Part shown: one piece after another, positions 36,601 through 48,600 of the stretch
How the letters are laid out: every line of letters starts with the position of its first letter
Position numbering within the stretch: the first letter of the stretch is position 1
Origin: a virus
Taxonomy: Duplodnaviria > Heunggongvirae > Uroviricota > Caudoviricetes
Direction: 5' to 3' (one strand)
DNA: 64,000 bases
Virus record (IMG/VR): IMGVR_UViG_2703718806_000008
Made by a program: the position numbers

Positions 36601-39600
36601 CTCCTGCCGCGCCTCCATGCTTCATGGTGCCGAACCTGTAAGCCAAACTTACAAGTTGAACGAGCTGTCGAGCAACTCTCCGGTAACTCCGGCTCGTTGG
36701 ATAAGCTGTAGTACACGAATCCCCGCTCAAGATGATTGGATTTTAATTTATTCAAAGCACGGCGAGTATATGGCAGGACAGGTACAAGGGGAATACGTGG
36801 AGTTGAGCGACGGCACTTTATCGTGGTTAGGGAGCGCCTTATTCTGGATGCCGCTGCCAGAACCGCCGAAGGAGGTACGCCAATGAGCTAGCCTGAAGCC
36901 TTCTCAAATGTTGGTATTGCAATGGCGGTAGCGCTGATGGTGTATTCGATTTGCCGCTGGGGATAAAAACGGTTTGCGGGGAAAGAAGAGTTAAGTAGAA
37001 TTGCTGCGGGTGCTTGAGGCTGTCTGCCTCGGGCATGCCGCCGTAAGGCAGACATAGAAAAGCCCCAGTTAACATTTCGCGTCTTGCAGGACGCTTAACA
37101 TTAATCTGAGGCCAATTTCATACTAGACACATGTAGGTTAGCCTCTTACGTGCCGAAAGGCAAGGAGAAGCAGTCTATGATGCAGCAAAAGGCGATGTTA
37201 ATCGCCCTGATCGTCATCTGTATTACCGTTGTTGTGACGGCACTGGTAACGAGGAAAGACCTCTGCGAGGTAGGAATCCGAACCGGTCAGACGGAGGTCG
37301 CTGTCTTCGTAGACTACGAATCTGAGAAGTAAGAGACCTGGCGAGGGAGTAATCTCCCGCCACCTCTGATGTGTCAGGCATCCTCAACGCACCCGCGCTT
37401 TACCATACTGAAAATGCTGTTTGAATGTTCATCTCTGAAAGAGGACTATGAATGAAAAAGGTATTGATTGCAGCACTTATTTCCGGTGTGTCTTTTGGCG
37501 TTTTTGCACAGCAGGGCGGTTTCCAAGGGCCTGAAGCAGAGCGTTCAACAGTAGCGCAGGCAAAAGAACTGAAGGATGATGCATGGGTTATCCTTGAAGG
37601 GAGCATCGTTAAAAAAGTGGGTAATGAACGTTATGAGTTTCGTGACAATAGCGGGACAATTGTCACGGATATTGATGACAGCGTATGGGCCGGGCAGAAT
37701 GTTTCTCCGAAAGACAAAGTAAGAATTGAGGGTGAAATTGATAAAGACCTGAGCAGTGTTGAAGTGGATGTAAAGGCACTGAAATTATTAAAGTAACCGT
37801 CCCAGCTTGCTAAGCCCGTCTTACTGACGGGTTTTCTGTTTGTTATCACAGTATTTTCAACAAAACACCGAATCTTATCCGGTGCGCTGTAAAAACCCCG
37901 TCCTTCAGGGCGTGGAGGATGTCAAATGGCAGGGGTGAACATCATCCCGGTTACATCAGATCGCCTAATAACATATCAAGATTATTTTGCTCATAAATGC
38001 TATTCGCCATTACCGTTGCTGCTTCAGCTTAATGAAACGCATAGATCCGCCATGCTTTTTCAGCAAATACGCTGCCATTTGCGCAACTTTTTCTTCATTA
38101 AACATAAATCGGCTCTCTGTATCACATGAAATGCTCTTTCTGACTATATGTTAATAGCTCCAGTTATTACAGGTCAATGAGTGTTTATTTCTTAATCAGC
38201 CCCGCACTTCCGTACGGGGCATGTTCTGTTACTCCACTCCCACTTTTTTGTTGTACTCGCGGTTAAAGCGATCCACGGCAACCTTCATATCCCGCTCTAC
38301 CGATTTCACCATCGCCGCCTGCTGCGCCAGACTGAGAGAACTGTCGGCATAAATGGCATCGCGCTGTTTGCGCAAATCCTTCAGTCTCTTCCGGGTATCC
38401 TGCATAAGCCCGTTCATCGACAATTTTCCGTTGTTCTCGTCAATGAACGCCGTTCTTTCTGCACCGGTCAGACTCTTCAGCTCTGCGTGATACTGCGCAA
38501 CCTCTGTCATCCGGTCGTACATCTTCTGCTGGTCTGCATACGGCATCACCTCACCCGAAATTTTCCCCAGGAAGGGCACCTGCTGTTCCGGTATATCAAT
38601 ACCATTCAGCGATTTCACCGCCGCATCCGTGGTTTTGGAAATGAAGCGCCCTGTCCCTCCGGAGATATAGTCAATCCAGAATATCAGCGATTCCGGTGTG
38701 ATATCCACCGCGCCGGGACGGTACTGACTGCCACCAGAGAACGCATTCAGCCAGGATGCAAACGCCTTGTACGCTTCTGGCGTTGAACGTATTCCCAGCT
38801 GGCTGTCAGGTTTTGGTGTACCAAACGGTATGTTCTCCTGGTAAATCTGCGCCCCCATGAAGTTTTCATTCATGGCAAGGTTCGCAAACGGACGCAGAAT
38901 GGTCGGCGCTGCATTTTTCAGCAATGCCCCGGACAGTGTTTCCGACGTCTCACTGCCGATCGGGCTGAATGCCCCCAGGATACCACCGACAACATTACCG
39001 GCAGCACGGGATGCCGTCAGGTCACCCGCCGCCACACCTTCAGCGGTATGCCCGAGCAGGAAGAAAACGTTGTACCCGTAAGGCAGAGGAATACTCCAGT
39101 ACTCTCCGGCCTTGCCCCCGAACACCGATTTCATAATGACGAGGTTACGCTCTTTCACATGAGACGGCACTTTGTCATACCAGTTAACCCCGTCATCATC
39201 CTCCCCCGCAACACTGCGGTTAAGCGAGCCAAGCAGATAACCCGCTCCCACAGCTGCAAGCGCGATTTTCTGCGGTACATTGAGATTCTTCCAGCGAAGG
39301 CGCTCCAGTAACGGCCCGTCGCCATTAAGATGTCCGAGCGTTCTCACCAGGTTTGCCGTCCCCTGAATGCTGGCGTTGGCAAACATATACAGCGAGTTCA
39401 TCAGCGCTCCCTGCTCACCACGACGATTAAAGTTCACCGTCATGTTTTTGGCAAGAGACGCCGCCTGCTGGCGTGACAAACCGGCATCACGGGCGTGTTT
39501 ATAGGCAGAAAGACGCAGAGCATTTTCAACCGCCCCGTTGGCATCCTCGACAAGGTTAAGGAACGAATTCCATGCACCGATACTCTGGCCTTTCCATCCT

Positions 39601-45600: not shown

Positions 45601-48600
45601 GCCATGACATTCACAGCCAGCAATTCAGGATCGGTTGCCAGCTGCGCGCGCACCTCATCAGCAACACGCTCTTTTGCCAGATCCATTTTCTGGCGGTCAG
45701 TAAGCTGTGCGTGCTGCGGGTCGGCGTCAATGGACAAAAACGTCTGCTGAAATTTCGGTGACTGCGCCAGCTCAGAGTAATCCGCATTAAGAACTGCATC
45801 TGCTGCCGCCATTGCACTCTGCCCCTGTGCACTGGCTGTGGAATGGGTGATCAGGCCCGCCTGGAATAAATCCGGCATTTTTTTATCGACAGCTTCTGCT
45901 GCCAGTGCCGTGGCTCTTTCCGGCTGCATCCCTGCCGCGATGTATTTTTTCTCCAGCCCGGCGGTCAGCATTTTTCGCAGTGTGACATCACCCACCTTTC
46001 TAGCCACACCGCCAGCAACCATATCAGGTACAAGCGCACCAATCAGGTTTACACCCTTCGCCACCCAGACCGCAGAATCATCATAGCCTTCGGTCATCGG
46101 CGTATTCAGCGCACGAACTGCACCCGGCGACATCTTACCGGTCAGCCATTCATCAGTGGCTTCAGCACCATCACTGACAGCCTTACCGGTTGCCTTCAGA
46201 CCTTTACCGACAGTATCAGTAACCGCGTTTTTGCCATCAGGCAGGGTATCGATGACCTCATCAGCCCCCCTGCTGCCACCGGCAAAAATATCCTGCACAG
46301 TTGCGACACCCGGCAGCCCCATACGGCTGAACTCATTTAAAATACGCGCCCCTGTTTTTACCGGGCTCTGAATCATCGCATCACCGAGTCCACGGGCCAT
46401 TTCCCCTGTTCCCCGGACGGACTGGGCGAAACCTTTACCCATTGTTGGCAATACATCGCCCAGGCTGAACGACGTACTGTTATCCTTCCAGCGATTCGGA
46501 TCAGAGAAAAATGCTTCATAGCTGTCAGTTTCGCCGGGTTGCTGAATGTTCAGGCTGTTACGATTCTGGTTACCGAGTTGCGCCTCAGGACGCTGTTCCT
46601 CTGAATAGGCCATACAGACTCCATAAAAAAACCCGGCACAATGGCCGGGCATCAGGAAATGGTATTAATGGAATATCGTGAATTACTGGGCGTAATTCTG
46701 TTTCAGTCCACGGATAAACTGAGATGCAGATGAAGCACTTTCATCTCTGGCCTGTTCCCCCCTGGCCTTTTGAATACGGAGAAAATTCGCATACCCGTTC
46801 TCCAGCAATTTCTGATTCTGAGGTTCCAGCATTTCAGGCTGACGGGCCGCTACATTTCTGGCAAATGACAGCTTATCAGGATCATCTCCCGCCCAGTTGA
46901 TAACCTGTTGCTGAAGTTTTTGTTGCTGAATTTTCTGTTGATGCGGTTGTGAACCAGTCGCAGCATAATATTCATCCACCGCAGCCTGAGCATTACCGCC
47001 ATTCTTGATCGCGTCCGCCGCTACGTTGCTGGCCCCCTTCTGAAGCTCTTTCAGAGAAAGTCCCTGCTGCTTCGGCATAAAATAACCATAATTTTTCGAT
47101 ATCTCTGCAAATTTGCTGCGATCCCTGACCTGAGCGATAGCCTTATCAACGGGTATCGCCAGCACGGTTTGATCATCAGGGTGCGCACTGCCGTATTCTG
47201 TTACAGGTTTATGCGCGGTGGAGCCATCGCTGTATGTGAGATCAAGGCCAATAAGTACGTACCCTTCCTGCTGCGCTGGTACGATACTGCCAATCCTGGC
47301 CTCTTTTATCGTTTTGTCCCCGGTTGAATCAGGCATGCCAATACGCTGTTGTAGTTCCGGGGCAAACACGCCGGAAAGCACATCGAGATTTTCCGGGGTA
47401 TTCAGCGAATCGATCGCCATGTCCGGCTTATCACCAAAGATTTTTTGCAGGTTGATCACGGCCTGACCCGCTTTCGCTGCATAGCCTTCGTTTGACATAA
47501 GAATTAATGGATGTCCCTTTGGCAGCTGCCCGAACAGACGCGTTGCAGCCTCCTGATCGCCAGCCTCAATTGCTTTTCCAAGCGCTTCCATTAGTGGCTG
47601 GCTATGGGCAATCATATCGTTATACTCAAGCCGTCGCTGGTTGTATTTCTGCAACTGGAGTCGCTGCTGCTCCATACCCAGTGACGCATTCCGGTAATTC
47701 TGGTTAGCGTTAAACTCCCTTTCCTTCAGTGCATAATTACGGTCGTCAACTTTGGCTCTGTAATCAAAGTTCCGCTGATCAACGTTTTTATTATGTTCAA
47801 ACTGAGACTGCGCAAACTCAAAATCGCGCTCGTTATTTTTCTGTTGCCGGGCAAGCTGTGCTTCACGCAGACCAAGCTCCTTACGACGGGTCATTGCCTG
47901 GTCAACGGTGCTGAATCCGGCAAGTAACCCCTGTGCAAATCCGCTCATTCACCACTCCTTAAAACAAAGAACCAGCAATGCCGCCAATTACTGCTCCAGC
48001 AACAGCACCAACAGGACCACCAACGGATGCGCCAATAGCCGCCCCCGTACCAATGCCCGTACCGATATTCTGCTTGTTCTGCGCTTTCTGTTGCGCCGCC
48101 ATCTGTTTGTTCGCAGCCTCAATTTCTTCACGTCGTCTGTCTGCGTCACTTATTCCCTGTAATGCCTCACGCCGCGACTGATTTGCAATATCCAGTAAAC
48201 CGTATCCCATATTGCCCCCTTACGCTGCCACCAGTTGGCCGCCAACACTCAGTTTCTGTCTTGCCGGTGCAGAAGCCCCCGTCAGAATATTCATCTGGCG
48301 ATCCTGTTCGGCTTCACGGATACCATTTTTCGCGCCAGCAATTGCCAGGGCATTACGTAACCCCAGCGTATTACTGTCGGGATTATCCGGGCGGTTTACC
48401 CCGTATCTCGCCATCTGGTTATCCTGCGCCATCTGCGCTGTACGGAGACTGGAAGTGGCAAGGCCTCCCACCCGTGCAAGCTGTGCATTCATCAGACTGT
48501 TGTTCTCCCCAAGGTCAGCCAGCCTTGCTACTCGGGGTAAATATCTGGTGCGCCAGTCGTCGTATTGCTGGCGGGTCAGCGCTGCGGATGTCTGCCAGTC

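Follow-up and report, generated by a model that had tools for sequence, protein, structure and literature searches.

We analysed an 8.4-kb gene on the minus strand of the virus sequence IMGVR_UViG_2703718806_000008 (Caudoviricetes; 64,000 nt, the whole stretch being called the window below), which encodes a giant protein at the end of a set of virion genes. Its closest described counterpart is gp47 of the Shiga-toxin-converting (Stx) phage phi24B. A recent preprint (bioRxiv 10.64898/2026.04.10.717836) found gp47 by mass spectrometry to be abundant in purified virions, though absent from cryo-electron microscopy (cryo-EM) and negative-stain density, listed its domains as LPD5, LPD1, LPD38 and MuF-C, and proposed that it is an encapsidated ejection protein. 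Since it is in the virions and yet has no density in the map, an internal location is implied. The protein class to which such domains belong, the large polyvalent proteins, was defined by Iyer et al. 2017.

The other relevant system is the virion RNA polymerase (vRNAP) of phage N4, gp50. Its N-terminal domain (NTD), for which membrane-spanning helices are predicted at 224-278, inserts into nanodiscs and has been linked to injection; a low-complexity linker of ~100 aa follows it (PMC13434306, PMC13492108). The C-terminal domain (CTD) is required for encapsidation, its role being regulatory rather than known to be catalytic, and its subdomain C1 (residues 2124-2375) holds the HExxH motif of N4. 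According to the same papers, gp52 and gp51 build an outer-membrane complex and a periplasmic tunnel, while gp50 is proposed to pass the ~35 Å channel as beads on a string and to stay membrane-anchored.

The comparison shows that the observation made from the sequence was correct and its first interpretation supported, and that this is a known protein of a known class. The gene, the class and the virion location are all on record, the class since 2017 and the location since 2026. New here is an N-terminal domain that, by sequence comparison, is homologous to the membrane-inserting NTD of N4 gp50. We consider it probable that the gene, from a Stx prophage of the 933W/phi24B type, encodes a "pilot" protein located inside the virion, of 308 kDa and free of Cys, built on the chassis of the N4 vRNAP without the polymerase. 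Its identity, domain content, homologies, conservation of catalytic residues and the presence of an orthologue in virions are supported directly.

Identity, distribution and gene model

The full-length 8.4-kb sequence matches 426 of 5,426 complete E. coli genomes and 186 phage records with 90-99.6% identity, and all of the latter are short-tailed Stx-converting phages (933W, VT2-Sakai, phi24B, Stx2a phages, Shigella Ss-VASD). The orthologue in 933W is ST933Wp72 (NP_049532.1), annotated "LPD5 domain-containing protein", and the RefSeq label of the gene is LPD5/LPD38 polyvalent protein. Hence the sequence-only reading, which recognised no characterised protein here, was wrong on this one point, as the protein has long been catalogued in Stx phages. 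ST933Wp72, phi24B gp47 (97% identical) and the VT2-Sakai orthologue (Sepvirinae Stx phages) are the same gene, with 97-99% nucleotide identity over the full length and with position and neighbours shared. They differ only allelically, mostly in the N-terminal third (91-98% amino acid identity). In the case of 933W, the same small genes are found upstream, and the same right arm downstream (YgiW-like, hok/sok, Ea22-like, DksA-like, Ant, attR). The prophage also encodes a capsid protein of the N4-gp56 family.

The same reading assigned the protein to the polyvalent, virion-delivered class and placed its gene at the end of the virion module. Both assignments are borne out, the former by the Pfam matches to LPD5, LPD1, MuF_C and LPD38 and by the orthologue gp47 in phi24B virions, and the latter by the gene being the last of the virion operon, behind four small Q/N-rich proteins. 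As in the case of the large polyvalent proteins of Iyer et al. 2017, with which it shares LPD domains, metallopeptidase (MPTase) domains, a PBECR domain and the virion-gene neighbourhood, several unrelated domains, LPD-class ones included, are joined in one giant polypeptide, encoded among late virion genes after the tail-fibre and internal-protein genes. Presence in virions has been shown for the orthologue, and delivery of the giant protein into the host together with the DNA appears likely.

The region 38229..46652 of the minus strand is, as claimed, a single unbroken open reading frame (ORF) with 2,807 codons counted from its first ATG. PHROG 616 (2,793 positions) aligns with it over its whole length from residue 14 on, where the RefSeq annotation of an E. 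coli locus 99.6% identical to this one starts as well; therefore, the start is assigned to the ATG at 46611-46613, yielding a product of 2,794 aa (about 308 kDa), in whose numbering all residues are given here. The GGAG ribosome-binding site noted earlier in front of this ATG is indeed present, and the features of this region are the following.

38229..46613, minus strand: coding sequence of the giant polyvalent virion protein, 2,794 aa, TAA stop at 38229-38231, start according to PHROG 616 and RefSeq
46619-46622, minus strand: ribosome-binding site GGAG, 5-nt spacer to the ATG at 46611-46613, from direct sequence reading
46625..46650, minus strand: strong terminator-like hairpin GCCCGGC-CATTGT-GCCGGGT with T6, filling the intergenic space downstream of the 421-aa gene, ahead of the giant gene's ribosome-binding site

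The first in-frame ATG (46650-46652) overlaps the stem of this hairpin. A longer ORF starting there (2,806-2,811 aa) is annotated in some records (933W, phi24B). The hairpin (46625-46652) may serve for attenuation, with readthrough when Q antitermination operates.

Homology to N4 gp50 and the domain layout

An exhaustive HMMER search with a profile of the N-terminal region identified 101 proteins, 52 of which are giants of 1,716-4,665 aa with this domain at the N-terminus. When the profile of these 52 sequences was compared with N4 gp50 1-700 (hhalign), residues 259-425 of the giant protein aligned with N4 296-444 (probability 96.0%, E 4.8e-9), with a score of 72.3, where shuffles reached 24.8 at most (z of at least 18). 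By this homology the giant protein is predicted to have the membrane-associating NTD that characterises gp50. While Iyer et al. 2017 saw no relatives of the N4 NTD outside N4-like phages, here it is seen in more than 50 giants lacking an RNA polymerase. The only strongly hydrophobic stretch of the protein, aa 181-199 (46017-46073), is located just upstream of the N4-homologous core, and the N4 helices 224-278 likewise precede the aligned region; the protein has no tape-measure-like hydrophobic repeats, as was stated from the sequence.

A direct BLASTP comparison of the giant protein and N4 gp50 is non-significant, but it indicated two regions, and both were confirmed by profile methods. The second one carries the HEIIH motif and aligns with the N4-like MPTase profile over 155 columns (hhalign probability 95.1%, E 3e-8), spanning the strands, the HExxH motif and the (N/G)EF(M/L)A Glu motif; it corresponds to the HExxH-bearing subdomain C1 of N4. 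Against the single N4 sequence the score of this region is 32.3, with a shuffle maximum of 26.3, and a search for related loci with the N4 MPTase region as the query recovered N4 itself alone.

The layout of the protein is given below; the four Pfam domains all exceed the gathering thresholds.

45204..46196, minus strand, aa 140-470: conserved N-terminal domain, core aa 259-425 homologous to N4 gp50 296-444
43917..45203, minus strand, aa 471-899: acidic low-complexity Pro/Ala/Arg-rich linker of ~430 aa, from composition
42264..43916, minus strand: segment between the linker and the second zincin region, carrying HEWFH
residues 1051-1200, minus strand: LPD5, Pfam E 2e-44
residues 1361-1440, minus strand: LPD1, Pfam E 9e-24
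41514..42176, minus strand: region carrying HEIIH, from the alignment, hhalign against the N4-like MPTase profile and AlphaFold2 (AF2) topology
41097..41366, minus strand, aa 1750-1839: MuF_C (PBECR), predicted RelE/barnase-fold RNase-like domain, PF18819 E 1.2e-17
38232..41012, minus strand, aa 1868-2794: C-terminal constant module (C-module), mostly helical, containing LPD38, conserved in other podophage giants
38568-39185, minus strand, residues 2477-2682: LPD38, Pfam E 3e-46

In both N4 gp50 and the Stx giant the NTD is followed by a low-complexity linker, and the zincin by a helical tail of ~900-1,100 aa. Given the NTD homology, the protein shares a chassis with the N4 vRNAP (NTD, cargo, zincin and helical tail of ~900 aa), minus the polymerase. 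The linker (E 12%, A 12%, R 10%, P 8%; hydrophobic residues 19%, compared to 27% in the whole protein) has no family matches in a lenient Pfam scan. Moreover, both proteins are giant, Cys-free and capsid-internal, and the gene of each closes its virion operon, preceded by genes for small Cys-free ejection proteins.

There are differences too. None of the vRNAP Pfam domains, four of which are found in N4 gp50, is present in the giant protein, and phmmer with the N4 RNA polymerase region found nothing in the giant-protein family, in agreement with the earlier statement that it has no T7/N4-type RNA polymerase motifs. Instead of the polymerase module it has an LPD5-zincin-LPD1 supermodule and MuF_C, and the phage itself, unlike N4, is temperate and lambdoid and uses the host RNA polymerase. 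The LPD38-type tail shows no detectable similarity to N4 CTD-C2 (hhalign E of at least 0.23), and the N4 CTD structure is absent from the fold matches. The similarity of LPD39-type tails to LPD38-type tails or to N4 C2 (E 0.005-0.007, probability 5-7%) is too weak to be claimed.

The two HExxH motifs reported from the sequence, HEWFH at 42750-42764 (residue 1284) and HEIIH at 41949-41963 (residue 1551), were checked by translation and lie 267 codons apart, as stated; 0.03 such motifs would be expected from the composition. Neither is covered by a Pfam match. In the first one, H1284-E-W-x-H1288 is invariant in all 44 of 44 sequences, as are H1263, E1265, D1291, E1375, R1379 and E1382; judging from the alignment, this motif together with the downstream Glu is a gluzincin-type signature, the Glu helix being situated within "LPD1". 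Because this helix falls inside LPD1, LPD5 and LPD1 look less like independent domains than like the two sides of a single unit centred on a zincin. In distant homologues the second motif has the conserved spacing H-E-x-x-x-H ("HEAVGH", "HEVLGH"), and the E. coli HEIIHH satisfies HExxH and HExxxH alike; the latter spacing occurs in DPP-III/M49 enzymes. An invariant Glu, E1607 in "AGEFLAH", is found downstream of this motif too. In the AF2 model both regions consist of beta-strands followed by the HExxH helix and then by helices including the one with the conserved Glu; in the central-block model HExxH lies on helix 393-410 and the conserved Glu residues on helix 484-502. Both HExxH motifs sit in conserved zincin-like domains, which are predicted metallopeptidases.

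Structural neighbours of the modelled region include anthrax lethal factor (7.0) and Pro-Pro endopeptidases (6.8-6.9), further minigluzincins, YbeY, M32 and M13 enzymes, SprT/Wss1, ArdC, IrrE/PprI and thermolysin, while MuF_C has weak structural matches to YafQ, RelE, ParE, HigB and CdiA. These model-based neighbours support folds of the zincin and BECR types; from the output it is not evident which HExxH domain the zincin matches come from. Sequence and profile searches against PDB chains gave nothing relevant, the only matches being designed helical repeats. A lenient Pfam scan of eight unassigned segments produced a match to Peptidase_M76 (E 0.2), which we regard as noise, and no credible match; lysozyme, SLT, M15 and M23 families were not matched in the Pfam scans, this lenient one included.

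MuF_C corresponds to the PBECR domain, a putative RNase with a barnase/EndoU/colicin/RelE fold (Iyer et al. 2017), and both the PF18819 match and the predicted RelE/barnase-like fold place the domain of the giant protein in this family. The phi24B preprint calls MuF-C a peptidoglycan-degrading metallopeptidase. As the Pfam and Iyer definition and the structural neighbours all indicate a RelE/barnase-fold RNase-like domain, MuF_C is RNase-like and no metallopeptidase, and the true HExxH domains of gp47 are elsewhere.

The C-module, aa 1868-2794, is the most widely shared part of the protein. It is found at the C-terminus of giants from Vibrio, Ralstonia, Burkholderia and Bacillus podophages and of many metagenomic proteins with 22-58% identity (tblastn: Vibrio phages 41.6% over the full length, Ralstonia 27-28%, Burkholderia BcepMigl 27%, Bacillus Page/Pascal 22%). 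Its AF2 model (predicted local distance difference test, pLDDT, 84.9; predicted template-modelling score, pTM, 0.81) is confident and mostly helical, with one beta subdomain. Similar to N4, the giant gene closes the virion operon in BcepMigl (4,658 aa), Vibrio D62 (3,066 aa) and Bacillus Pascal (1,672 aa). Operon-terminal position, zero Cys and the LPD38 module of ~900 aa (22-42%) are common to the Stx protein and the giants of Bcep22 (gp75), JC1 (gp69), BcepMigl (gp16) and the Ralstonia GP4-like, Vibrio D62-like and Bacillus Page-like phages, whose heads and portals are related to those of 933W. In particular, the portal, capsid and head-closure proteins of the Bcep22-like phage JC1 are related to their 933W counterparts, and its 4,515-aa "DarB-like" homologue gp69 is virion-associated by mass spectrometry. 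The cargo varies: BcepMigl gp16 carries SLT, an Eco57I-type methylase, a helicase and PBECR1, all of them absent from the Stx protein, in the Vibrio D62 and Pascal giants LPD38 alone was detected, and the metagenomic relatives have methyltransferases, ART, LPD3 and other domains or scarcely exceed the module.

Cysteine depletion, small upstream proteins and surroundings

Cys is absent from all 2,794 residues of the giant protein (P about 1.5e-9, with the frequency taken from the other virion genes in the window, 30 Cys per 4,141 aa). The same is true for N4 gp50, BcepMigl gp16, D62 0021 and Pascal gp19, so that the five giants together have zero Cys in 15,690 aa, and the 52 NTD-bearing giants have 5 Cys in 148,867 residues. 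Adjacent virion proteins that remain in the particle do carry Cys. The depletion may be a signature of unfolded passage through the tail and the oxidising periplasm; a full-text search of the available papers found none clearly reporting Cys depletion of ejected podophage proteins. Directly upstream of the giant gene lie its candidate partners.

46683..49325, minus strand: four small Cys-free Q/N-rich genes (421, 83, 150 and 218 aa), candidate ejection partners, matching PHROGs 601/594/596/611

These four PHROGs are annotated as of unknown function. The proteins were described from the sequence as Q/N-rich and ejection-like, and the richness is confirmed (Q+N 13-17%). Vibrio phage D62 has syntenic homologues of the small proteins upstream of its giant gene, also Cys-free, and N4 gp51 and gp52 are likewise Cys-free and Q/N-rich, with no significant similarity to the small proteins found here.

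One of the four, the 83-aa gene (47959-48210, minus strand), is named "bacteriocin" in 933W (ST933Wp70). It is Cys-free, has a C-terminal Gly-zipper hydrophobic helix, lies within the ejection-gene cluster and has a syntenic homologue in phage D62 of Vibrio (42% identity). In the phi24B preprint a "homolog of a bacteriocin" from virions is set aside as contamination; a genuine ejection protein is the more likely interpretation.

Further upstream, between the tail-fibre genes and the ejection cluster, a moron pair (50249-51691, minus strand) encodes a Lom-like outer-membrane protein and a "membrane associated protein" and is flanked by terminator-like hairpins at 50225-50207 and 49368-49349. 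At 55713-58358 (minus strand), GC peaks locally at 0.59 and the AT skew is strongly negative (-0.34); the tail-fibre gene that coincides with this region encodes a Gly-rich (16%) protein of 881 aa and has matches to dozens of fibre PHROGs, collagen-like ones among them. Downstream of the giant ORF, the plus-strand genes at ~33350-38228 (Ant, DksA-like, Ea22-like, DUF551, hok/sok, YgiW-like) form the right arm of the phage up to attR, as in 933W. In the adjoining region (23261-33343) the prophage borders on ynfF, and a near-identical annotated genome keeps just an 84-nt fragment of ynfG. Positions 1-23073 hold the terminal part of another lambdoid prophage (dicB, ydfD, an 823-aa exonuclease, xis, int) adjoining rspB; the window therefore holds two prophages with ~10 kb of host genes between them (rspBA, ynfA-F, speG).

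Interpretation and alternative explanations

By analogy with N4, the protein packaged in the capsid would act as follows. The four small Cys-free proteins would leave the particle first and form a channel spanning the envelope, and the giant protein would follow through the tail as beads on a string. The hydrophobic helices of its NTD would insert into the inner membrane, and the linker would tether the refolded enzymatic domains in the cytoplasm. There, in the framework of N4 and of Iyer et al., the zincin or zincins could cut a polyprotein or host targets, and the RNase-like domain could act on RNA, aiding the establishment of the incoming genome. Such activities may amount to anti-defence or host takeover.

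Several observations weigh against this account or limit it. Ejection, membrane anchoring, proteolysis and RNase activity are predictions for the giant protein and its close relatives. The N4 vRNAP is packaged unprocessed (Iyer 2017), so that processing may not be what the homologous zincin does at all. As the C-module and N4 CTD-C2 show no similarity, a role of the former in encapsidation is suggested only by analogy. The MuF_C portion of the model is of low confidence. Finally, Foldseek against the PDB gave no significant match for either model: the C-module had no fold match (best E 0.23), and the best match of the central block had E 1.2, with weak matches to YafQ, HigB and ParE only.

The phi24B preprint offers a different function for gp47, that of a trans-periplasmic conduit that extends the short tail, its metallopeptidase domain digesting peptidoglycan to reach the inner membrane. 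The abundance of gp47 in virions, its absence from the cryo-EM map and the need of podophages for ejected proteins to span the periplasm agree with this, and by its homology to N4 the NTD probably has a part in an inner-membrane complex. We nevertheless find this model unlikely. The "metallopeptidase" it invokes is the PBECR RNase-like domain of Iyer, with RelE/ParE toxin neighbours, whereas the real zincins resemble cytoplasmic or toxin enzymes (MtfA, lethal factor, Pro-Pro endopeptidase, SprT, ArdC) and N4 C1 rather than cell-wall peptidases. In addition, no lysozyme, SLT, M15 or M23 match is present, while BcepMigl gp16 has a dedicated SLT; the N4 tunnel is made by the small gp51 and gp52 and not by gp50; and the C-module occurs also in phages of Bacillus, a host without such a periplasm. 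The evidence favours a cargo directed to the cytoplasm, both because the zincins are similar to enzymes of the MtfA, lethal-factor, SprT and ArdC types and to N4 C1, and because no muralytic family is matched while relatives that need a cell-wall enzyme carry SLT. A mainly structural role, i.e. an internal core or scaffold that organises DNA or plugs the portal, with the enzyme-like domains as degenerate relics, would also explain the abundance in virions and would be in line with the regulatory and encapsidation role of the N4 CTD, not known to be catalytic; catalytic activity is predicted here from sequence. We regard such a role as quite unlikely.

Improbable as well, and more so, is a DarB-type antirestriction protein that shields the incoming DNA from type I restriction via methyltransferase and helicase. 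PHROG 10089 ("DarB-like antirestriction") matches residues 2365-2695, and the relatives in BcepMigl and Ralstonia phages are annotated as DarB-like, but this match is limited to the LPD38 C-module. Neither the N6-adenine methyltransferase nor the helicase that characterise P1 DarB was found in the Stx protein by Pfam, while BcepMigl gp16 has a methylase and a helicase, and PADLOC gave no defence-system match; the label is a carry-over from cargo domains that the Stx protein lacks. A tape-measure or tail-fibre protein, for which only the large size and the late position in the virion module speak, deserves practically no credence: the phage is a podovirus, the tail, fibres and needle of phi24B are all assigned to other proteins in the preprint, and there are no tape-measure or fibre family matches (Pfam, PHROG) or repeats of such kind. 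The domain content and the phi24B structure refute it.

Within the preferred explanation, an internal pilot protein on an N4-type chassis, a further step can be taken only tentatively, at somewhat less than even chances: the Stx giant and the N4 vRNAP could be divergent members of one ancient family of Cys-free, capsid-packaged pilot proteins, with the Stx cargo acting on host targets at a membrane-anchored ejectosome. The chassis of this family, proposed with the same reserve, would consist of a membrane-inserting NTD, a linker, an exchangeable cargo, a C1-type zincin and a helical encapsidation tail of ~900-1,100 aa. Equally tentative is the content of the cargo slot, which would hold the RNA polymerase in N4 and the protease-like LPD5-zincin-LPD1 unit with the RNase-like domain in Stx phages.

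Our additions are modest: the N4-type chassis without a polymerase, the catalytic motifs as two zincin cores rather than MuF-C, and the family of Cys-free ejected proteins. They make the giant protein experimentally tractable. If the family proposed above is real, near-zero Cys could serve as a sequence signature of proteins that have to pass the tail and the oxidising periplasm as a thread, and the cargo delivered into E. coli, whether aimed at host defence or at takeover, would influence which strains the Stx phages convert. Enterohaemorrhagic E. coli arise through short-tailed Stx phages, and the giant gene makes up about 14% of the genome of these phages; its product is probably decisive in the first minutes of infection and of lysogenic conversion.

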